A DNA stretch of 26,439 nt. It comes from a virus (taxonomy: Duplodnaviria; Heunggongvirae; Uroviricota; Caudoviricetes). The notes beneath the pieces were generated by a model, which was given only the letters and a program-made list of their open reading frames with translations, did not search any database and was not told where the DNA came from. Positions 6,997 to 26,347 of this stretch are shown here, piece after piece. Within the stretch, counting starts at the first letter, position 1; the number at the start of each line of letters is the position of its first letter. The translations under genes were made by a program, and so were the position numbers. Where the stretch lies: the IMG/VR virus record IMGVR_UViG_2651869691_000005; one strand, given 5' to 3'.

Positions 6997-7434
6997 TCAT
7001 CGAAGGCATTGCGTCCTAATGTACTCCTGCAAGTAGTTAACCTGCGCGGTTATCCTGTCGATTCCACTTCGGAGACGGTAATAATTGAGTTCAGCATCTG
7101 CTGTAAGTCCTGGGGTTTCTCCATTGCCCATGCCGCTGGCTCCGGTCGTTGACTTTGCACAGGTGGCGGCGACTTGCAGGCGCTTACGCCCAGCAGAAAC
7201 ATCAGCACGGAGACTTTCGATAGTCGCATTAGCATCAGCAAGCTCCTTTGTGTATCTGGCGTCAAGTTCTGCTACATCACGTTGCCGCTTCTGCATATCA
7301 GCGATGATGGATGTGGCTTTATCGCGCTGCTCTTTGTAGGCGATGGCGTTATCACGGTAATGATTAACAGCCCATGAAAGGCAGACGATGAGGCAGATGA
7401 CCAGAACGTAGATAATCGCGGTTACTCTGCTCAT
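6997..7434 (-). CDS. Rz: Spanin, inner-membrane subunit (Rz)
   Basis: [39 protein letters not shown]... closely matches the lambda Rz N-terminus as recalled. Start ATG 7432-7434 overlaps the endolysin stop. Confidence 0.85.
7050..7235 (-). CDS. Rz1: Spanin, outer-membrane lipoprotein subunit (Rz1), embedded in Rz in the +1 frame
   Basis: Embedded ORF; from ATG 7233-7235 it reads [33 protein letters not shown]..., a lipobox followed by a proline-rich segment, the classic Rz1 arrangement. Confidence 0.75.
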
Positions 7435-10278: not shown

Positions 10279-10538
10279 GGTTCTTTCCACCATCTGAAAA
10301 ATAATTCTTTAAAATACCTGACATGTAATACAGAAAAAACACAAAACCATACCTTAAATAAAAACCTCATCATCAAGCAGATATGCATGGATAAACTACA
10401 AGACGAGATATAAACCACCCTGCATTTAAATAAACAATAAACAACATCAGAAAAATAATTCTGCTCTATGGTTTACAATCAAAAATATCATTTATACTTT
10501 TCAGAACATCACCAGCAAGGCATAAACAAGGAAACTAA

Positions 10539-10874: not shown

Positions 10875-11306
10875 GGAGTTTACTCACATCTGACAAAATC
10901 AATATAAACAGCCCCTCCGGAGAGGGGCTGGAGAGTGGCGCTATGTGCCATTGCATGGTGCCGGGTGCCTCCCGGTGAATTCAGTACCAGCACCTGAATC
11001 CGCGATTATCCCATATACCTACTCGCTGATTGCCCCTCCGCACAGGGGGATTCACCATGCCAGTTTCTTTTAACAAACTCCCCGCAAACCAGACAACAGT
11101 CAACCGCCTGAATTGTGAAGTATTTAAAAATTTCTCCGGCTAACAGTCTGGCGTTTTCTTTTTCAGCAACGGGAAAGCAACAACCACCACACCCGCCACC
11201 AGTACACAGTCAGCCAGCACTGACATTATCCGGCTGCTGCAATGCCATTCACAAAAACAGTAAGCAATCACTTTTTACCGTAACAGGTGATAATCCAGAT
11301 ATGTAT

Positions 11307-11770: not shown

Positions 11771-11847
11771 TGGCGCGTTGTACTGGATTCGAACCAGTGA
11801 CCGATTGCTTAGAAGGCAATTGCTCTGTCCGGCTGAGCTAACAACGC
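11771..11847 (-). tRNA. tRNA-Arg (anticodon UCU)
   Basis: Reverse complement GCGTTGTTAGCTCAGCCGGACAGAGCAATTGCCTTCTAAGCAATCGGTCACTGGTTCGAATCCAGTACAACGCGCCA folds as a canonical cloverleaf with a TCT anticodon, TTCGAAT T-loop and encoded CCA. Confidence 0.8.
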
Positions 11848-11944: not shown

Positions 11945-12020
11945 TGGTGGCCCTTGCTGGATTTGAACCAGCGACCTGGCGATTATGAGTCGCTCGCTCT
12001 CACCACTGAGCTAAAGGGCC
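11945..12020 (-). tRNA. tRNA-Ile2 type (anticodon CAU, ileX/ileZ-like; elongator Met cannot be excluded from sequence alone)
   Basis: Reverse complement GGCCCTTTAGCTCAGTGGTGAGAGCGAGCGACTCATAATCGCCAGGTCGCTGGTTCAAATCCAGCAAGGGCCACCA; canonical cloverleaf, closely resembling E. coli ileX as recalled. Confidence 0.8.
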
Positions 12021-16112: not shown

Positions 16113-16268
16113 TTACTCCTCAGGTTCGTAAGCTGTGAAGACAGCGACCTCCGTCTGGCCGGTTCGGATTCGTACCTCGCAGAGGTCTTTCCTCGTTACC
16201 AGTGCCGTCACTATGACGGTTAAACAGATGACGATCAGGGCGATTAACATCGCCTTTTGCTGCTTCAT
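16113..16268 (-). CDS. hok: Hok/Gef-family type I toxin (51 aa; HokD/RelF-like)
   Basis: Found by manual translation (below the ORF-track size cutoff): MKQQKAMLIALIVICLTVIVTALVTRKDLCEVRIRTGQTEVAVFTAYEPEE, matching Hok/Gef family sequence as recalled. SD AAGGAG 8 nt upstream. A 19-codon upstream ORF (from 16322-16324) ends in ATGA overlap with the hok start. Confidence 0.8.
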   Translation of the reverse strand: MKQQKAMLIALIVICLTVIVTALVTRKDLCEVRIRTGQTEVAVFTAYEPEE

Positions 16269-16526
16269 AGCCTGCTTCTCCTTGACCTTTCGGTCCGTAA
16301 GAGGCTAATCTCTATGTGTCGCATAGATATGGCCTCAGATTAATGTTAAGCGTCTTGCAGGACGCGTAATGTTAACTGGGGCTTTTCTCTATCTGCCTTT
16401 TGGTGTTCATGCCTGAGACAGATAGCCTCAAGCACCCGCAGTCATTCTACTTAACTAAGATTTCCCCGCAAACCGTTTTTGTCCGGCACAGTAAATATCC
16501 AACTAAACCAATGGCGTTCGCTGTAT

Positions 16527-20185: not shown

Positions 20186-20932
20186 TTACTTCACAACCCT
20201 CATATTGCTGACATTTGGACGCCAGCTATCCCAGTTAAACGTCACCCATCGACCACCGTTCATGGTCATGCGGTCCATAATCCTCTCACCAAGAAGCGTA
20301 CTCATTGCGGCATGATTCAGGTTTGTTAACATCCCGACACTGCACAGTGATGCTGTCCGGCGATCAATTATCTGGTGCAATACCACCTGCTCGTTTTTCG
20401 TCTCCCGCTGAACGCCTATTTCATCCAGGACCAGCAAATCAACCCCGCAAAGCTCCTGTAAAAATTTTTCCCCGGATTTGCCGTTGTCGTAGCTGTCATG
20501 CAACACGCTCATGACGTCAGACACGGTGACGATAATCACGCTGCGCCCCTTCACCATCAGCCGGTTGCCCATCGCCGCTGCAAGGTGATTTTTCCCGGTG
20601 CCGGTTTTACCGCTGAACACAAAATTCGTGCACCCGGTCATCAGTTCGTCAGCTATGGATTTGGCCTGGCTCAGCGCGTATTTTTGCCCGTCGTTCTGCA
20701 CCTGATAATTTGCAAACGAGCATTTGCTGTGCAGAGGCTGGATGCCCGAACGATTCAGGATTTTTTCCACCCGCAACTGGCGATTCTGGCGGTTAATCTC
20801 CTCGCTGCGTTTTCGTCCTTCAGCAAGTTGCCATTCCCGCCACTCCTCCACCGTCCGGTACGGTGGAACCGACCCCTGTGGTGCAAGTCTGCGAATACGT
20901 TCAAGAACCCCAACTGCCGCAATGTTTTTCAT
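20186..20932 (-). CDS. DnaC-like helicase loader (IstB-type AAA+ ATPase)
   Basis: 248-aa ORF with Walker A FSGKTGTGKNHLAAAMGNRL and Walker B LLVLDEIG; SD GGGGGTGA. Occupies the lambda P position after the O-like gene. Confidence 0.85.
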   Translation of the reverse strand: MKNIAAVGVLERIRRLAPQGSVPPYRTVEEWREWQLAEGRKRSEEINRQNRQLRVEKILNRSGIQPLHSKCSFANYQVQNDGQKYALSQAKSIADELMTGCTNFVFSGKTGTGKNHLAAAMGNRLMVKGRSVIIVTVSDVMSVLHDSYDNGKSGEKFLQELCGVDLLVLDEIGVQRETKNEQVVLHQIIDRRTASLCSVGMLTNLNHAAMSTLLGERIMDRMTMNGGRWVTFNWDSWRPNVSNMRVVK

Positions 20933-20938
20933 GACACG

Positions 20939-21901
20939 TCACCCCCTGAATCCCGGCGGTATTTCAGTGTCCGGTTCAGAAATGTGATTCACGCAACGCT
21001 GCGCAGGCGAACGCCCCAGGCGGATAACCAGTTCATCCCATTTTTCCCGGAGTTTTGCCGGACTCATGATGTTTTTTACCCAGAACGAATCCCGCTGGAG
21101 ACGCCCAAACATTTCACAAATTTGTCTGTGAGTTCTGCCATCCAGCATCCGCATTGTGCGAACGTCATTGGCCCATGCTGTCCAGTTGGGTTCTTTCGGT
21201 CTAGTGATCTCGCCATCATCGCTGGCCGCCTGCTCGTAAAGACTCACGATTCGTCCCCAGATCCACTGTGCGCACACCAAATCTTCCTGACTTCCCCACT
21301 GGCGTTTTTTCGCACTGAACACAACCGCGTCAGGGTGTCGGGTTAAAAAATCCTGTTCAGCCGTCTGCGGGTCCGGTTGCGAAGCGTCCGGACAAGAAGA
21401 TCTTTTATCTGACGGATCAGGTTTTAATACTGACGGATCGGGGTCAATCATCGCCCCCCTAATCGGCAGTTTTTTATCAACAGTTGATCCATCAAAATTT
21501 GACGGGTCAACCGTTGAGGGGTCAATATTTGACGGGTCAACTGTTAACGGGTCATTTTTTGCCGGGCTAATTTTTCTTTTCGGTTTATATGACTCACGCG
21601 CCGCCGCCGCAGCTGCTTCGAGTTTTTCCACATTAAGCCGATAGATATTGCTTACATTACGCCCACCGACCTTACGCTCTTCCTTCGTCAGCCAGCCCTC
21701 TTTCGCCAGTTCTGCAATAGCCGATTTCACTGTGGATTCACTTCTTGCACCGATCTGACGCCGGATAGTTTCAATGGCAGGCCATGACACGCCCTCGTCA
21801 TTGCTGTAGTCTGCAAGACGGGCCATAACCGCCACCCTGGATAAGATCATGCCGGTGAAGGCGCACCCTTCCCAGACAAGACCATGAAGCTTGCTGCTCA
21901 T
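20939..21901 (-). CDS. Replication initiator (lambda O-like) with internal iterons
   Basis: N-terminal winged-helix-like region (ILSRVAVMARLADYSNDEGVSWPAIETIRRQIGARSESTVKSAIAELAKEGWL) and a central repetitive DPSxV segment encoded by the iterons. Start ATG 21899-21901 (alternative GTG 21914-21916). Confidence 0.8.
   Translation of the reverse strand: MSSKLHGLVWEGCAFTGMILSRVAVMARLADYSNDEGVSWPAIETIRRQIGARSESTVKSAIAELAKEGWLTKEERKVGGRNVSNIYRLNVEKLEAAAAAARESYKPKRKISPAKNDPLTVDPSNIDPSTVDPSNFDGSTVDKKLPIRGAMIDPDPSVLKPDPSDKRSSCPDASQPDPQTAEQDFLTRHPDAVVFSAKKRQWGSQEDLVCAQWIWGRIVSLYEQAASDDGEITRPKEPNWTAWANDVRTMRMLDGRTHRQICEMFGRLQRDSFWVKNIMSPAKLREKWDELVIRLGRSPAQRCVNHISEPDTEIPPGFRG
21409..21571. repeat. Origin iterons (TTGACGGGTCAA-like), five copies at exact 15-bp spacing plus two upstream copies; adjacent AT-rich tract
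   Basis: Copies start at 21499, 21514, 21529, 21544 and 21559, with two more at 21409 and 21430. Each copy is a dyad-symmetric TTGAC-GG-GTCAA core. A/T-rich stretch at 21553-21595. Confidence 0.75.
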
Positions 21902-21923
21902 AAAACCCCCGAACACCGTGCTT

Positions 21924-22349
21924 TTAGTGCATCACCACAGCATTCCCTGCCGGGCCGCCGCGATTCATCTGGTCATACAAAACAACCGCTGACGCAACAA
22001 AATCATCGACATCCTTCACCAGCCGATCCCTCCGTTCGACGATCTCACGGTAATATTCAGAACTGTGGCTGCGCATACGGGCCACCAGCAAAGGCGGCAT
22101 CGCCTTTTCGATCGCCGGTAACAGAGCCTGCATTTTTTCAACAGCATCAGGGGTGTCTTTATCCAGCCAACGGAAAATTTTCTGGGTATTACGGGCCAGG
22201 GCTTCCGGATGGCTGTCGTCGTACAGTTCAGGGAACGTCATCCCCAGTTCGAAATAAGTCCGGGCTATTTCAGCTGCAGGAACTTTCTCACCATCAGGGT
22301 ATGCCCAGGCATTCATCGCCATGCGGATGTGCTCATGTTTGATTTTCAT
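21924..22349 (-). CDS. YdaT-like protein (cII-position regulator of Rac-type immunity regions)
   Basis: 141-aa ORF starting MKIKHEHI..., which I recall as the YdaT N-terminus; the size matches. Immediately downstream of the Cro-like gene. Confidence 0.65.
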   Translation of the reverse strand: MKIKHEHIRMAMNAWAYPDGEKVPAAEIARTYFELGMTFPELYDDSHPEALARNTQKIFRWLDKDTPDAVEKMQALLPAIEKAMPPLLVARMRSHSSEYYREIVERRDRLVKDVDDFVASAVVLYDQMNRGGPAGNAVVMH

Positions 22350-22656
22350 GAATCATTTGCCTCTTGATGCTTCGGGTATGATCGTTTTCGTCATTTGGTT
22401 GCTTCATCGACATATTCTGCGAATAACATGACGAGCGTCGTAAGTATGTCCAATCAACATCAGGACGAAGTTCTTCACACAGGACACCACCTTTTGTTGC
22501 TCGTTCAATCGCAGGACATCTCTCAGCAGGTAACTGACGTACACCTTTGATCCATTGATTTACGCTTGGAGGAGATACACCTAAAAGCCTAGCCATTGCT
22601 GATTGCCCACCGACAACAGCACAAGCTCGTTTGAATGAATAGTTATCTTTTTTCAT
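22333..22656 (-). CDS. Cro/YdaS-like HTH regulator
   Basis: From ATG 22654-22656: MKKDNYSFKRACAVVGGQSAMARLLGVSPPSVNQWIKGVRQLPAERCPAIERATKGGVLCEELRPDV, a Cro/YdaS-type HTH. Divergent from the repressor gene. Confidence 0.7.
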   Translation of the reverse strand: MKKDNYSFKRACAVVGGQSAMARLLGVSPPSVNQWIKGVRQLPAERCPAIERATKGGVLCEELRPDVDWTYLRRSSCYSQNMSMKQPNDENDHTRSIKRQMIHENQT

Positions 22657-22683: not shown

Positions 22684-22730
22684 ATATTAGGCTTAGCCTA
22701 ATGAAATTGTCAATAGGCTAAGCCTAATAC
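22684..22730. promoter_or_regulatory. OR-like operator/promoter region: two TAGGC-N3-GCCTA palindromes overlapping a minus-strand promoter (TTGACA-18-TAATAT)
   Basis: Palindromes at 22688-22700 (TAGGCTTAGCCTA) and 22714-22726 (TAGGCTAAGCCTA). On the minus strand, TTGACA (rc of 22708-22713) and TAATAT (rc of 22684-22689) are 18 nt apart and overlap them. Confidence 0.7.
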
Positions 22731-22780
22731 ATCGAGAGTAGGGATTGCCTAACGCGATGCGCATAGGAGACTATTAAGCA

Positions 22781-23257
22781 ATGCTTAGTGGTAAAGATTT
22801 AGGCCGAGCGATAGAGCAGGCCATTAACAAAAAAATTGCATCAGGAGCCGTCAAATCAAAGGCGGAAATCGCACGTCATTTCAAAGTCCAACCACCATCA
22901 ATCCATGACTGGATTAAGAAAGGTTCGATAAGTAAAGACAAACTTCCAGAACTATGGCGTTTCTTTTCTGATGTGGTTGGTCCAGAGCATTGGGGGCTTA
23001 ACGAATACCCCATACCAACCCCATCCACTTCAGATACAAAAAGTGAACTTTTAGACATAAACAGCCTTTATCAAGCCGCCTCTGATGAAAAAAGAGCAAT
23101 TGTGGCTTTCATCTTATCTGGAAATGCTACGGAGCCTAGTTGGGTTGATCATGACGTTCGCGCCTACATTGCCGCAATGGAAATGAAGGTAGCTAACTAT
23201 CTGAAAAATCAAGCATCAAAACGGAAAAGCCAGAACATCACCAAGACAGGAACTTAA
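22781..23257 (+). CDS. Prophage repressor (cI position; N-terminal HTH; no recognisable LexA/S24 autocleavage motifs)
   Basis: 158-aa ORF; N-terminal HTH (KSKAEIARHFKVQPPSIHDWIKKG). No Ala-Gly / Ser-Lys peptidase signature seen. Flanked by operator palindromes on both sides. Confidence 0.7.
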   Translation: MLSGKDLGRAIEQAINKKIASGAVKSKAEIARHFKVQPPSIHDWIKKGSISKDKLPELWRFFSDVVGPEHWGLNEYPIPTPSTSDTKSELLDINSLYQAASDEKRAIVAFILSGNATEPSWVDHDVRAYIAAMEMKVANYLKNQASKRKSQNITKTGT

Positions 23258-23352
23258 ACTTATATGGTCCGACGGGAAATTCCTAGTTCCCGTTAGTTAA
23301 CTCCTACTACCTCTTCCACAAACCATCACCTATTAGGTTGCGCCCAAATTAT

Positions 23353-23394
23353 TAGGCATAGCCTATTGACAAGTAATTAGGCATTTCCTATAGT
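23353..23394 (+). promoter_or_regulatory. OL-like operator/promoter: TAGGC-N3-GCCTA palindromes overlapping a plus-strand promoter (TTGACA-17-TATAGT)
   Basis: TAGGCATAGCCTA at 23353-23365 abuts TTGACA (23366-23371); a second, imperfect site TAGGCATTTCCTA (23378-23390) lies in the spacer; -10 TATAGT at 23389-23394. Reads into the early-left genes. Confidence 0.7.
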
Positions 23395-23575
23395 TTTCCC
23401 ATACCAACCCATCCCGTCCCACACAATACAGGGCAATACCTCGAGTTACCAGGCAGTGGTCACGGGTTAAGTAGCCAGCCCGAGGCGTAAGAACATGACG
23501 GCAGGGTTCAACTTTAATAACTATGCAGCAGGTTTTTGTTCCGCTACCCCGGCGTTAAGGGGAAATGAGGTCAGC

Positions 23576-23731
23576 ATGGATACTATCGATCTTGGCAACA
23601 GCGAATCTCTGGTATGTGGCGTGTTCCCCAACCAGTACGGTACGTTCACCGCAATGACGTATACCAAAAGCAAAACGTTTAAAACCGAATCTGGAGCGCG
23701 TCGCTGGCTGGAAAGAAATTCAGGTGGGTGA
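23576..23731 (+). CDS. Small early-left protein (51 aa; YdfA/YdaF-sized)
   Basis: ATG 23576 with SD GAGG 5 nt upstream: MDTIDLGNSESLVCGVFPNQYGTFTAMTYTKSKTFKTESGARRWLERNSGG. Size and position match the first gene of the Qin dicB operon as recalled. Confidence 0.45.
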   Translation: MDTIDLGNSESLVCGVFPNQYGTFTAMTYTKSKTFKTESGARRWLERNSGG

Positions 23732-23732
23732 T

Positions 23733-23861
23733 ATGGATTTCGACACAATCATGGAAAAGGCTTACGAAGAATACTTCGAAGGCCTTGCCGAAGGCGAAGA
23801 AGCTCACAGCTTCAACGAATTTAAACAGGTGCTTTCCAGTTCGGCAAAATCTAATGGCTGA
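23733..23861 (+). CDS. Small early-left protein (42 aa; YdfB/YdaG-sized)
   Basis: Manual translation from ATG 23733 (SD GGTGG): MDFDTIMEKAYEEYFEGLAEGEEAHSFNEFKQVLSSSAKSNG. Below the ORF-track size cutoff. Confidence 0.45.
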   Translation: MDFDTIMEKAYEEYFEGLAEGEEAHSFNEFKQVLSSSAKSNG

Positions 23862-23890
23862 TAAGCGAAACAGCACCGCGAGGAATCAGT

Positions 23891-24109
23891 ATGCAGAAAC
23901 GAGAACCCGTCATCATCGCGCCAGACTATACCAATGATGAACTTTATGAGTGGATGCACCAGAAAATTAATGCAGCGCAGGATCTGAAATGGGCTAATGA
24001 AGTCAGGGCTAAGCAGGCTGAAAATCTGTCCTCTCTGGAGCAGGATATCACCAATCTGGAAAAAGCAGCGGCATTAACCATTGCCAGAATGATTACATAC
24101 CCGCGTTAA
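23891..24109 (+). CDS. Small early-left protein (72 aa; YdfC-sized)
   Basis: ORF with SD GAGGAA 6 nt upstream: MQKREPVIIAPDYTNDELYEWMHQKINAAQDLKWANEVRAKQAENLSSLEQDITNLEKAAALTIARMITYPR. Confidence 0.5.
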   Translation: MQKREPVIIAPDYTNDELYEWMHQKINAAQDLKWANEVRAKQAENLSSLEQDITNLEKAAALTIARMITYPR

Positions 24110-24450
24110 TAGCTAACCAACGAAGCTAAGGTTGGTAATTAAGGAGTTCTCCACGGGTGAGGTGGAGTGCTTGCGCCGGACACGGGTGAGCATCCGGCAC
24201 TGACAGTTTACTGAAAGGATATTTCCCTGAAAAGTCAGACCATAACGCGAAAGCGCACGGCGAGGTAGCTGGTTCATAGATAGCCTGTCGTTAAATTTTC
24301 GTCGACCGTGCGCTTCCGGTTGTGGCAATCCGCGAAATGGCGCGGCGGTAAGTATGGCGGGGTTATTCCTTCCCCCGTTGAGGACACCGGGTTGTCAGGT
24401 TGACCATACGCTTAAGTGACAACCCCGCTGCAACGCCCTCTGTTATCAAT

Positions 24451-24508
24451 TTTCTGGTGACGTTTGGCGGTATCAGTTTTACTCCGTGACTGGTCTGCCG
24501 CCCTTTTT
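24451..24508 (+). ncRNA. dicF: DicF sRNA homologue
   Basis: TTTCTGGTGACGTTTGGCGGTATCAGTTTTACTCCGTGACTGGTCTGCCGCCCTTTTT matches the ~53-nt E. coli DicF sequence as I recall it, with one or two substitutions. Lies in a ~550-nt noncoding stretch of the early-left operon, as dicF does in Qin. Confidence 0.7.
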
Positions 24509-24682
24509 AAAGTGAGTTTTGTGATGCGGTGAATGCGGCTGAGCGCACGCGGAACAGTTAAAACCAAAAACAGTGTTATGGGTGGGCTCTCTGTATCCGG
24601 CGTTAATTGTTAACTGGTTAACGTCACCTGGAGGCACCAGGCACCGCATCAACAAAGTTCATTTGTAAAAATGGAGATAATT

Positions 24683-24904
24683 ATGATTGCTCATCACTTC
24701 GGAACTGATGAGATTCCTCGTCAGTGCGTGACTCCCGGTGATTATGTTATTCATAAAGGAAGAACATATATTGCTTCGGTAAACAACATTAAAAAACAAC
24801 GGCTCTATATTCGTGATTTTTCCACACAACACTGTATTAAGGAAACCATGATTAAAGTCTTCCTTGGTCGTGATGGTTTACCTGTAAAAGCAGAGTCATG
24901 GTGA
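24683..24904 (+). CDS. Small protein downstream of dicF (73 aa; at the DicB/KilR position, possible cell-division inhibitor)
   Basis: ATG 24683 with SD GGAG: [73 protein letters not shown]. Does not match DicB as I recall it; function inferred from position only. Confidence 0.4.
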
Positions 24905-25027: not shown

Positions 25028-26347
25028 ATGAGTAAAGTCTTTATTTGCGCCGCCATTCCGGACGAACAGGCAATAAAGGAAGAAGGTGCAGTTGCTGTAG
25101 CCACTGCCATTGAAGCCGGTGACGAACGCCGCGCCCGTGCCAAATTTACCTGGCAATTCCTGGAGCAATATCCGGCTGCTCAGGACTGCGCTTATAAATT
25201 TCTTATCTGCGAGGATAAACCCGGCATGCCCCGCCCTGCTATCGACTCCTGGGATACCGAATATATGCAGGAAAACCGCTGGGATGAGGAATCCGCTTCC
25301 TTTATTCCGGTCGAACCAGAATCCGAACCGATGAACGTCAATTTTGACAAACTGTCCCTTGAAGTACAGAACGCTGTCATGGTTAAGTTCGACACATGTG
25401 AAAACATCACCGTTGATATGGTGATTAGCGCGCAGGAATTGTTGCAGGAAGACATGGCAACATTCGACGGACATATCGTTGAAGCGTTGATGAAAATGCC
25501 AGAAGTTAACGCCATGTATCCGGAGCTTAAGCTGCATGCCATCGGGTGGGTTAAGCATAAATGTAAGCCTGGTGCCAAATGGCCCGAAATTCAGGCAGAA
25601 ATGCGCATCTGGAAAAAACGTCGCGAAGGTGAACGCAAGGAAACCGGAAAATACACGTCTGTTGTTGATCTCGCCCGCGCCAGAGTCCACCGACAGCACA
25701 CTGAAAACTCAGCAGAAAAAATCCCCCCTGTCACTGCAGTCATTCGTCGCGAATATAAGCAGACATGGAAAACACTGGATGACGAACTGGCCTACGCTCT
25801 CTGGCCTGGTGATGTGGATGCCGGAAACATTGACGGCAGCATCCATCGCTGGGCAAAAAATGAAGTTATCGACAACGACCGCGAAGACTGGAAGCGTATC
25901 TCGGCATCGATGCGCAAACAGCCTGATGCCCTTCGCTACGACCGCCAGACTATTTTTGGCCTTGTCCGTGAACGTCCGATCGACATTCACAAAGACCCTG
26001 TGGCACTGAACAAATACATTACTGAATACCTGACTACAAAGGGCGTGTTTGAAGATGAAGGAACAAATCAGAGCGCAACTGATACTCTCTCGTCGCCAGT
26101 ACCAGAAACTGATGCAGTGGAAACGGCAATTCCGGACAACGAAAAAACCGAATGCAAAGTGGAAGTCGAACCATCTGTAGAGCGTGAGGGGCCGTTCTAC
26201 TTCCTCTTCACCGACAAGGATGGCGAAAAATACGGTCGCGCAAACAAACTTTCTGGTCTGGATAAGGCGCTGGCTGCCGGGGCTACTGAAATCACGAAAG
26301 AAGAATATTTCGCCCGCAAAAACAGTACATACTCAGGTTCACGGTAA
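25028..26347 (+). CDS. Hypothetical acidic early-left protein (439 aa), probably C-terminally truncated by IS1 insertion
   Basis: Long ORF with SD; its TAA stop (26345-26347) lies inside the IS1 terminal repeat GGTAATGCTGCC..., so the native 3' end is probably missing. No family recognised. Confidence 0.6.
   Translation: MSKVFICAAIPDEQAIKEEGAVAVATAIEAGDERRARAKFTWQFLEQYPAAQDCAYKFLICEDKPGMPRPAIDSWDTEYMQENRWDEESASFIPVEPESEPMNVNFDKLSLEVQNAVMVKFDTCENITVDMVISAQELLQEDMATFDGHIVEALMKMPEVNAMYPELKLHAIGWVKHKCKPGAKWPEIQAEMRIWKKRREGERKETGKYTSVVDLARARVHRQHTENSAEKIPPVTAVIRREYKQTWKTLDDELAYALWPGDVDAGNIDGSIHRWAKNEVIDNDREDWKRISASMRKQPDALRYDRQTIFGLVRERPIDIHKDPVALNKYITEYLTTKGVFEDEGTNQSATDTLSSPVPETDAVETAIPDNEKTECKVEVEPSVEREGPFYFLFTDKDGEKYGRANKLSGLDKALAAGATEITKEEYFARKNSTYSGSR

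Follow-up and report, generated by a model that had tools for sequence, protein, structure and literature searches.

The locus between positions 22,684 and 23,394 raises the question of how a prophage repressor with no recognisable self-cleavage module keeps the genes on both of its sides silent, and what releases them. We analysed it within the window, i.e. the whole stretch of 26,439 nucleotides. The region very probably belongs to an E. coli lambdoid prophage of the Rac/Sp6 type and serves as its immunity switch in the style of lambda. The main features have been described before in near-identical prophages, and the first-pass annotation had read the region correctly, but what it had read is ordinary. 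Sequences, domains, conservation and family relations come from the present analysis. For binding, promoter mapping, toxicity, the octamer and SOS-insensitivity we rely on published work on orthologues. The features are as follows.

21924..22349, minus strand: ydaT-like gene of a CII-type regulator (Pfam YdaT_toxin 2.8e-10; PHROG CII-like activator 2e-47)
22333..22656, minus strand: ydaS-like gene of a Cro-type HTH protein, first gene of PR (Pfam YdaS_toxin 3.8e-30, P22_Cro 1e-8)
22684..22713, minus strand: PR-equivalent promoter (PydaS), TTGACA-18-TAATAT, 10/12, leading to ydaS, ydaT and the replication genes
22688..22700, unstranded: OR site 1, TAGGCTTAGCCTA, perfect, within the PydaS (PR) spacer with a 2-nt overlap with the -10
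22714..22726, unstranded: OR site 2, TAGGCTAAGCCTA, perfect, directly abutting the -35 of PR
22739..22751, unstranded: OR site 3, TAGGGATTGCCTA, 1 mismatch, covering the upstream promoter region of racR
22767..22772, plus strand: putative -10 (GAGACT) of a leaderless racR promoter, proposed from alignment with K-12 PracR3 (PMC9638921)
22775..22787, unstranded: OR site 4, TAAGCAATGCTTA, 2 symmetric mismatches; its N3 spacer is the racR ATG and its right half-site encodes Leu2
22781..23257, plus strand: racR, prophage repressor of 158 aa (ORF list and translation), with an N-terminal HTH at about residues 1-73, a disordered linker at 74-92, a helical C-terminal domain at 93-152 and a basic tail ending in KTGT
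23334..23346, unstranded: OL site 3, TAGGTTGCGCCCA, 2 mismatches, weak, distal and doubtful
23353..23365, unstranded: OL site 2, TAGGCATAGCCTA, perfect, directly abutting the -35 of PL
23366..23394, plus strand: predicted PL-equivalent promoter, TTGACA-17-TATAGT, 11/12, leading to the early-left operon
23378..23390, unstranded: OL site 1, TAGGCATTTCCTA, 1 mismatch, in the PL spacer with a 2-nt overlap with the -10
23576..24904, plus strand: PL operon cargo as a whole
23576-23731, plus strand: ydfA-like gene (DUF1391), PL cargo
23733-23861, plus strand: ydfB-like gene, PL cargo
23891-24109, plus strand: ydfC-like gene, PL cargo
24452-24503, plus strand: DicF sRNA, PL cargo
24671-24904, plus strand: gene of a KilR-family FtsZ inhibitor, PL cargo

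The annotated 158-aa repressor with an N-terminal HTH proved to be a RacR equivalog. It scored 245.8 bits against NCBIfam NF049929 over residues 1-145, where the curated equivalog cutoff is a whole-protein score of 200 bits. Its identity with the listed RacR proteins of E. coli, among them the orthologue at the K-12-like Rac locus, is 91 %, and it shares 156 of its 158 residues (99 %) with ECs_1506, the repressor of prophage Sp6 in strain Sakai. The AlphaFold2 (AF2) model is all-helical, with helices at residues 4-71 and again at 93-152, separated by a linker of low confidence (pLDDT below 50 at residues 80-90), and agrees with the two-domain architecture published for K-12 RacR (PMC9638921, PMC11014345). 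A sequence-profile search of the PDB with RacR returned 0 matches. The K-12 protein was described as an octamer from a single Superdex 75 size-exclusion run, which its authors interpreted as four dimers occupying the four upstream sites and not as a loop (PMC11014345).

Regarding the operators, the 26.4-kb window holds three perfect copies of the palindrome TAGGC-N3-GCCTA (22688, 22714 and 23353), while 0.00 are expected in the shuffled window and none of the shuffles reaches even one. Sites with one mismatch lie at 22739 and 23378, and sites with two mismatches at 22775 and 23334. This gives seven sites, four upstream of or over the racR ATG and three downstream. The four copies annotated earlier as flanking the gene were thus placed correctly but miscounted, as three sites are perfect, two carry one mismatch and two carry two. 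The palindrome extends to ATTAGGC-N3-GCCTAAT. In K-12, DNase I footprints defined the RacR operators as (T/A)TAGGC-n3-GCCTA(T/A) (PMC9638921), complemented by EMSA and promoter mapping (PMC9638921, PMC5700373), and judging by their sequence the palindromes of the window are these published operators. OR site 1 is the counterpart of the K-12 site for which the least RacR sufficed for protection, and OR site 4 that of the published operator overlapping the racR start codon (PMC9638921). Sequence-specific binding and repression of PydaS were demonstrated for K-12 RacR only (PMC5700373, PMC9638921). The downstream sites appear to form an OL cluster around PL, which would be a further RacR target.

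Both near-consensus promoters of the first-pass annotation, the minus-strand TTGACA-18-TAATAT and the plus-strand TTGACA-17-TATAGT, were recovered with palindromes overlapping each of them. They lie one on each side of racR and point away from it, as lambda PR and PL do, and are not back to back. Sites 22688 and 22714 bracket the -35 of PR and overlap its -10. Promoter-like matches in the region are not above chance (2 found, 3.0 expected), so the support for the two promoters comes not from their number but from the quality of the matches, their conservation in 13 loci and the mapping of the ydaS promoter in K-12, where PydaS with identical hexamers was established by primer extension and mutagenesis (PMC9638921). 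Moreover, RNA-seq in K-12 showed that ydaG, ydaF, kilR and racC rise 40-70-fold when RacR falls (PMC6765115). The PR and PL cassettes are joined by a 23-nt inverted repeat, of which OL site 2 is a part. A hairpin at 23271-23294, after the racR stop codon, was considered as a terminator, but with a folding z-score of -1.74 and no U-tract we do not claim it as one.

The arrangement is conserved well beyond E. coli. Operators at -66, -41 and -6 relative to the ATG are found in most of the 28 loci compared, from Enterobacterales to Burkholderiales, and OR site 3 reappears in the majority of family loci as TAGGAATTGCCTA, near -41. The PL/OL cassette is conserved in 13 loci over the same taxonomic range, with the majority base averaging 97 % in the half-sites and 97 % in the -35, as against 55 % for the N3 spacers and 54 % for the flanks. 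The context of OL site 3 is also found in K-12 but is not conserved outside Escherichia. A divergent YdaS-like gene accompanies the repressor in 23 of 26 family loci, and the HTH segment of the YdaS-like protein in the window is 41 % identical to RacR residues 18-46. The Pfam and PHROG matches listed above bear out the YdaS/YdaT-like identity of the repressed genes, and the toxicity of ydaS/ydaT derepression, which the annotation had cited for the equivalent Rac genes, is already published (PMC5700373, PMC5700377).

The closest described relatives are the K-12 Rac prophage and Sp6. The window is 87 % identical in DNA to the K-12-like Rac locus, with the same gene order, including ydaS, ydaT, an O-like and a DnaC-like gene on the PR side. 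It also shares the PydaS hexamers, a matching upstream operator layout and the same two downstream sites. The remaining divergence of about 13 % includes the N3 spacers of the operators and the -10 of the leaderless racR promoter (GAGACT in the window, GAGAAT in K-12). The PL cargo also differs, being of the Qin type (ydfABC-like, DicF) in the window and ydaG-ydaF-sieB in K-12 Rac, and the window prophage, unlike K-12 Rac, retains late genes (terminase, portal, lysis). Sp6 of Sakai O157:H7 is integrated next to potC, and the closest genome match to the window has the same integration neighbourhood. Besides its repressor, Sp6 shares with the window ydaS- and ydaT-sized neighbours and the five best operators in the same layout, but it has three perfect OR sites and its left operon is largely deleted. 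Another Sakai prophage, Sp10, is the comparator that the literature names, but it was rejected in favour of Sp6. Its repressor also lacks S24, but only a 33-residue HTH stretch is common to it and RacR, and TAGGC-N3-GCCTA sites are absent from Sp10. What has been stated about Sp10 is therefore not applicable to the window.

We then consider whether the repressor could cleave itself. The annotated lack of recognisable LexA-like motifs held in Pfam, in motif reading, in the AF2 model and in hhalign, and the domain search for a cryptic S24 module that had been suggested as a check was negative throughout. Peptidase_S24 (PF00717) gave no Pfam match to RacR even at E≤1, and NCBIfam and PHROGs were likewise negative for an S24/LexA-type domain. 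Direct reading of the translation found no GxSM motif with catalytic Ser/Lys and no Ala-Gly or Cys-Gly scissile dipeptide after residue 75, and a scripted scan found the GxSM and A/C-G motifs equally absent from the RacR-type relatives. Profile-profile alignment with S24-bearing relatives was confined to residues 1-84. The presence of genuine S24 proteins among the close relatives that share the DNA-binding domain of RacR could suggest that RacR conceals a cryptic LexA-like autocleavage activity. However, the modelled C-terminal domain consists of three helices, as opposed to the all-beta S24 fold, and the roughly 65 residues after the linker are too few for the S24 domain of about 120 residues of the relatives. 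Together with the missing motifs, the unmatched PF00717, the end of homology at residue 84 and the behaviour of Sp6, this already contradicts such an activity, to which we give practically no credence. Sp6 was found to be spontaneously inducible but not mitomycin C inducible, which its authors attributed to a repressor without a peptidase motif (PMC2669165), and Rac excision is not induced by mitomycin C either (PMC4632033). The earlier suggestion that induction may not follow RecA-mediated self-cleavage is thus supported.

The family offers a context for this absence. PF00717 is present in 13 of 24 family members, and the Ser and Lys are invariant across the 16 aligned S24-type members, whereas RacR-type members have neither. 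The S24-bearing relatives include proteins from Achromobacter, Pigmentiphaga, Bordetella, Herbaspirillum and Pectobacterium (e.g. P0101, P0102 and L014-L031). Their N-terminal domain is near-identical to that of RacR (consensus 71 % identical over residues 1-84), and their loci have operators at -66, -41 and -6, the same PR/PL cassettes and a divergent YdaS-like Cro gene. They differ in having PF00717, the GxSM serine, the conserved lysine and a near-invariant linker glycine, features because of which we expect them to be SOS-cleavable, while RacR-type proteins carry an orphan three-helix domain in place of the S24. As the DNA-binding domain and the operators are common to both groups, RacR looks like a member of an SOS-cleavable repressor family in which the C-terminal domain has been swapped. 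A search of 1.84 billion representative proteins for relatives of the C-terminal domain recovered only RacR fragments and homologues and two repeat-protein artefacts, so the domain is not a widespread module. Wherever it was found, it was joined to the N-terminal domain of RacR, and its occurrence was confined to Enterobacterales.

From these observations we propose the following mechanism. RacR dimers would bind ATTAGGC-N3-GCCTAAT via a lambda-cI-like five-helix HTH domain, at mirror-image cassettes of the form [operator]-TTGACA-6/7 nt-[operator overlapping -10] on both sides of racR. The left cassette (22684-22726) would silence PR and keep the Cro-like ydaS, the CII-like ydaT and the replication genes off. 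The right cassette (23353-23394) would in the same way silence PL with the ydfABC-like genes, DicF, the KilR-like division inhibitor, an exonuclease and, further on, xis/int; repression at this promoter is what we infer from the cassette. The two further upstream sites, covering the racR promoters and the start codon, may provide negative autoregulation of a largely leaderless mRNA. With oligomerisation through the helical C-terminal domain, sites 25-26 bp apart could be filled cooperatively, and RacR oligomers might also hold OL and OR together in a loop of about 650 bp. Because RacR lacks the S24 autopeptidase module, the switch would be unresponsive to RecA/SOS. It would flip as the RacR level falls, be it spontaneously, by effects of growth phase and host factors, or through YdaS; any of these could be the natural trigger.

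The switch resembles that of lambda in that the repressor gene lies between two operator clusters overlapping outward promoters, with Cro-like and CII-like genes downstream of PR, a leaderless repressor mRNA and a reported octamer. The 25-26 bp between adjacent operators compare with 23-24 bp in lambda. Unlike lambda CI, RacR has no S24 C-terminal domain and no RecA-mediated cleavage, and it recognises another operator sequence. Moreover, OL lies only about 100 bp past the RacR stop codon with no rexAB-like genes between, and one operator covers the start codon. The analogy with Cro is incomplete, as YdaS of K-12 reportedly does not repress racR (PMC9638921). PaaR2-YdaS-YdaT of CP-933P and DicA-DicC of Qin are, like the RacR system, non-S24 HTH repressors with divergent Cro-like genes in lambdoid cryptic prophages, but both belong to other repressor families with other operator sequences. 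PaaR2 lacks the peptidase motif and is unresponsive to mitomycin C (PMC8630535).

What lowers RacR in nature is the point on which explanations diverge. We come closest to an even chance with a bistable circuit that has no dedicated inducer, flips stochastically or when host physiology (RpoS, H-NS, OxyR, Rho, growth phase) lowers racR or raises xis expression, and is locked in the lytic state by YdaS. This would fit the classification of Sp6 as spontaneously inducible (PMC2669165), the increase of Rac excision in stationary phase via RpoS and its dependence on H-NS (PMC4632033), the excision that follows RacR depletion alone or YdaS overexpression (PMC11014345), and the bistability of the related non-S24 PaaR2/YdaS switch of CP-933P (PMC8630535). 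Neither an antirepressor nor a LexA box was found in the window scans, which fits as well. The account is compatible with, and not opposed to, the lambda-style switch, but it does not account for the persistence across Enterobacterales of an orphan C-terminal domain whose KTGT tail is conserved. This domain may instead do more than serve as an oligomerisation scaffold and take a dedicated non-SOS input (antirepressor, protease or small molecule), with the octamer bridging OR and OL so that racR itself lies inside a loop of about 650 bp, a combination that we regard as conceivable but rather doubtful.

Taken separately, a dedicated antirepressor comparable to those of the Gifsy prophages, 186 (Tum) or P22 (Ant) seems unlikely. 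It would bind the C-terminal or HTH domain, and its gene would lie in another part of this prophage or in a second prophage of the same cell. RacR does lack S24, as do the repressors of antirepressor-controlled systems, its C-terminal domain is lineage-restricted with no other known role beyond oligomerisation, and near-identical Sp6 has two genes annotated as phage antirepressor (ECs_1533 and ECs_1557). These lie in a lysis cassette region absent from the window or in the tail region outside it. However, a scan of the 20 larger ORFs of the late and nin regions gave no match to an antirepressor family; it covered the 26-kb window, which stops short of the tail and int ends of the prophage. Antirepressor genes of this kind are usually under LexA control. 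The LexA box CTGT-N8-ACAG is absent from the window and from 49 kb of Sp6, and none was found in the 900 bp around the start of the tail-region ant gene of Sp6 with one mismatch allowed. Within ±2.5 kb, no gene co-varies with the RacR-type C-terminal domain, the only differences being in cII-like and replication modules, and the lack of mitomycin C induction of Sp6 (PMC2669165) also speaks against an antirepressor. One-mismatch, AT-rich matches to the LexA box at 7355, 10318, 10711 and 13094 were set aside as unconvincing; three are inside ORFs, and the one at 10318 immediately precedes the start of an ORF. Removal of RacR by a host protease (ClpXP, Lon or similar) through its disordered basic tail, as in Mu repressor variants, is less probable still. 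The last seven or so residues have low pLDDT in the AF2 model, and the K-T-G-T end is kept in homologues from E. coli, Mixta, Morganella and Erwinia that otherwise diverge by about 40 %. On the other hand, the proposal is pure inference, KTGT fits no citable degron class and is missing in Klebsiella, Proteus and some other RacR-type homologues, and K-12 RacR was readily detected in both log and stationary phase (PMC5700373).

Most of the elements of the proposed lambda-style switch are on record, i.e. the K-12 operator consensus, the absence of a peptidase motif and of mitomycin C induction in Sp6, and the toxicity of ydaS/ydaT. Beyond the published accounts consulted, our comparisons point to the conserved PL/OL cassette and to a RacR DNA-binding domain and operators in common with S24-bearing relatives. 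A paper by Conter et al. (1996) may describe the kil promoter/operator of Rac, and hence possibly the PL/OL sites. The cassette is now precisely defined and makes the division-inhibitor operon a predicted direct target of RacR. The S24-bearing relatives with the same operators would form a natural domain-swap pair with RacR, suited to asking how the induction input of a phage switch may be exchanged while the immunity specificity stays the same. RacR-type regions control lethal functions (YdaS/YdaT, KilR, DicF) and also govern prophage mobility in Shiga-toxin-producing strains, and the lack of an SOS response in such a prophage bears on predicting its mobilisation by DNA-damaging antibiotics. 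We identified RacR-type immunity regions, counted where at least 80 % of the 1.2-kb query was matched, in 1085 of 5426 complete E. coli genomes.

RacR, the 158-aa repressor of the E. coli lambdoid prophage to which the window belongs, is encoded on the plus strand at 22781-23257 and scored 245.8 bits against the NCBIfam RacR equivalog model (cutoff 200 bits). The 1.2 kb around racR is 99.7 % identical to a potC-adjoining prophage of STEC strain 2011C-4251 and shares 87 % identity with the Rac locus of strain CIT, whose chromosome is K-12-sized. Of 5426 complete E. coli genomes, 1085 match at least 80 % of this query. The cargo of PL, the early-left promoter, is a set of Qin-type division-inhibitor genes under Rac-type immunity. 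The features of the region are the following:

10900-11089, minus strand, STnc100 sRNA, downstream of the Q antiterminator gene
11771-11847 and 11945-12020, minus strand, two tRNA genes (Arg-tct and a CAT-anticodon Met/Ile2 type), downstream of Q
16266-16437, minus strand, sok antitoxin RNA of a hok/sok module, nin region, upstream of Q
20186-20932, minus strand, DnaC-like replication gene, left of racR
20939-21916, minus strand, O-like replication gene, left of racR
21924-22349, minus strand, YdaT/CII-like gene, left of racR
22333-22656, minus strand, YdaS/P22-Cro-like HTH gene, left of racR
22713..22684, minus strand, PR (ydaS) promoter TTGACA-18-TAATAT, from promoter scan
23366..23394, plus strand, PL promoter TTGACA-17-TATAGT, from promoter scan
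23576-24109, plus strand, ydfA-, ydfB- and ydfC-like ORFs, right of racR
24452-24503, plus strand, DicF sRNA (Rfam RF00039, 74.2 bits), right of racR
24671-24904, plus strand, KilR-family FtsZ-inhibitor ORF, right of racR
25028-26347, plus strand, exonuclease gene, right of racR

DicF thus sits after the ydfA/B/C-like ORFs and before the KilR-family ORF in the putatively RacR-controlled PL operon. The exonuclease ORF (25028-26347) stops after 439 aa and matches a PHROG profile of 823 positions only over positions 1-438; its counterpart in the closest genome is an 823-aa gene, and the window's copy has probably been cut short or interrupted close to the end of the window. The tRNA pair and STnc100 downstream of Q form an arrangement typical of STEC lambdoid prophages.

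Three perfect TAGGC-N3-GCCTA palindromes were found in the 26.4 kb (22688, 22714 and 23353), with 0.00 expected in shuffled sequence. The same two clusters contain one-mismatch sites at 22739 and 23378 and two-mismatch sites at 22775 and 23334. The palindromes reported by the first-pass annotation are therefore present, but they number seven with mismatches allowed and not four. The fuller motif is ATTAGGC-N3-GCCTAAT. From centre to centre, the left-hand sites are spaced by 26, 25 and 36 bp and the right-hand ones by 19 and 25 bp. The fourth left site (22775-22787) holds the racR ATG inside its N3 spacer, and Leu2 is encoded by GCTTA, the right half-site; the stretch coding for the family's conserved Met-Leu N-terminus therefore doubles as a repressor site. 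This fits the invariance of Met1 and near-invariance of Leu2 across the family. In Escherichia, the start-codon operator is the symmetric variant TAAGC-AAT-GCTTA.

Both promoters were recovered exactly as that annotation had described them, and both are near-consensus. Since the scan gave no more hits than expected by chance, the case for them rests on their quality, their conservation and mapping in K-12, where a ydaS promoter identical to the window's was mapped and mutated (PMC9638921). The two cassettes, some 640-690 bp apart, are mirror images flanking racR. In each, the first operator abuts the upstream side of the -35 and the second lies 6-7 nt downstream of it, its final two bases being the first two of the -10. 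This mirrored arrangement is reflected in a 23-nt inverted repeat (22707-22729 / 23350-23372, 96 % complementary).

Scanning a single genome for each species, we identified 28 RacR-family loci. In most, sites recur near -66, -41 and -6 relative to the ATG, whichever type of C-terminal domain is encoded, and E. coli Rac-type loci have one additional upstream site. The downstream operator pair with TTGACA and a -10 is kept in 13 loci, where the mean majority base reaches 97 % in the half-sites and 97 % in the -35, versus 55 % in the N3 spacers and 54 % in the flanks. In Enterobacterales this cassette is found 60-135 bp beyond the stop codon; in several S24-type or other non-enterobacterial loci (including L014, L017, L018 and L019) the distance is 0.8-1.9 kb, which leaves space for cargo genes ahead of OL, comparable to lambda rexAB. 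A divergent YdaS-like gene is present in 23 of 26 loci. Over its HTH segment, YdaS shares 41 % identity with residues 18-46 of RacR, a resemblance to be expected if the two recognise common operators.

RacR itself lacks an autocleavage module. Relaxing the Pfam threshold to E<=1 still gave no S24 match, the only matches being weak HTH ones at residues 22-61, and neither a GxSM motif nor an Ala/Cys-Gly after residue 75 occurs in RacR by direct reading or, by scripted scan, in the RacR-type relatives. In an AlphaFold2 model (mean pLDDT 80) built from a 42-sequence alignment, five N-terminal helices are followed by a low-confidence linker (pLDDT <50 at residues 80-90) and three C-terminal helices. 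The proposal of a repressor lacking LexA-like motifs was thus borne out, and no cryptic S24 domain was found.

A protein search recovered a near-identical N-terminal domain fused to Peptidase_S24, for example in P0101, P0102 and P0114 (PF00717 E-values 1e-19 to 1e-21). PF00717 is present in 13 of 24 distinct family members, all 13 outside Enterobacterales (Achromobacter, Pigmentiphaga, Bordetella, Herbaspirillum, Hydrogenophaga, Azoarcus, Aeromonas and others), and an alignment of the 16 S24-type proteins shows an invariant Ser and Lys and a nearly invariant linker glycine. The helical C-terminal domain was found in Enterobacterales loci and one unclassified Pseudomonadota MAG. Profile-profile alignment joined the two types over residues 1-84 only (71 % consensus identity), and the C-terminal domain alone, searched against 1.84 billion representative proteins, matched only RacR fragments or homologues. 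Judging from these alignments, RacR is therefore a C-terminal domain-swap variant in a family whose other members look SOS-cleavable.

Asadulghani et al. reported that the Sakai repressors of Sp4, Sp6, Sp9 and Sp10 have no peptidase domain and that mitomycin C does not induce Sp6, Sp9 and Sp10, which are spontaneously inducible (PMC2669165). Sp6 is the relevant comparator, as its repressor is identical to RacR at 156 of 158 residues and its operator layout is shared, whereas Sp10 has another repressor and no TAGGC-N3-GCCTA sites. In the mechanism with the best support, RacR dimers on both sites of each cassette would occlude RNA polymerase at PR and PL, and at higher concentration the two sites over the racR promoters and start codon would fill, giving negative autoregulation. 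The helical C-terminal domain would provide cooperativity and possibly an OL-OR loop. Lacking S24, the switch would not respond to RecA and would flip when the RacR level drops. Three parts of this scheme, namely RacR binding at OL, the loop and the trigger, are inferred for the window sequence.

Inactivation of RacR by an antirepressor would be another route, and Sp6 does carry two genes annotated as phage antirepressor (L033 19318-19887 in the lysis cassette and 36554-38209 in the tail region, the latter adjoining a small divergent regulator). They lie in regions that the window lacks or does not cover, and no ant gene separates the window's neighbouring endolysin and Rz genes. Neither the window nor the 49-kb Sp6 locus, including the surroundings of the tail-region ant gene, yielded a LexA box; none of the larger window ORFs scanned matched an ant family, and no gene within 2.5 kb co-varies with C-terminal domain type. 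We consider this route improbable.

The first-pass interpretation is correct and has already been published for orthologues and near-identical prophages. RacR binding and three upstream repeats were reported in 2017 (PMC5700373). The consensus (T/A)TAGGC-n3-GCCTA(T/A) with DNase I footprints, the TAATAT/TTGACA ydaS promoter, the leaderless racR promoter, the operator over the racR ATG and a two-domain helical model followed in 2022 (PMC9638921). In 2023, RacR was reported to be an octamer by SEC, with a C-terminal domain unlike that of lambda CI that nevertheless serves oligomerisation (PMC11014345). The toxicity of derepressed ydaS/ydaT, to which the annotation had pointed, is established (PMC5700373, PMC5700377); Jobling regards the two as Cro/CII analogues, not toxins (PMC5917428). 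A fall in RacR raises ydaF, ydaG, kilR and racC 40-70-fold by RNA-seq (PMC6765115).

Useful, incremental additions are the conserved PL/OL cassette, a candidate site for direct control of the division-inhibitor and recombination operon by RacR, and the sharing of the DNA-binding domain, operators and both cassettes with S24-bearing repressors of Betaproteobacteria and other Gammaproteobacteria. Neither was found in the literature examined, which did not extend to older work on the Rac kil promoter.

Two smaller observations concern the PL leader and the RacR tail. A 13-nt exact direct repeat, CCCATACCAACCC, occurs at 23009-23021 (RacR linker codons, PIPTP) and at 23398-23410, within the C-rich leader that immediately follows the PL -10, with a chance expectation estimated at ~0.01 in 1.1 kb. 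This C-rich, G-poor leader is a possible Rho-loading site. The disordered, basic tail of RacR ends in K-T-G-T (residues 155-158; 23243-23254), an ending absent from Klebsiella and Proteus homologues and common to RacR-type proteins of Escherichia, Mixta, Morganella and Erwinia (including L008, L009, L010 and L013) despite ~40 % divergence elsewhere; it might serve as a degron or contact motif.
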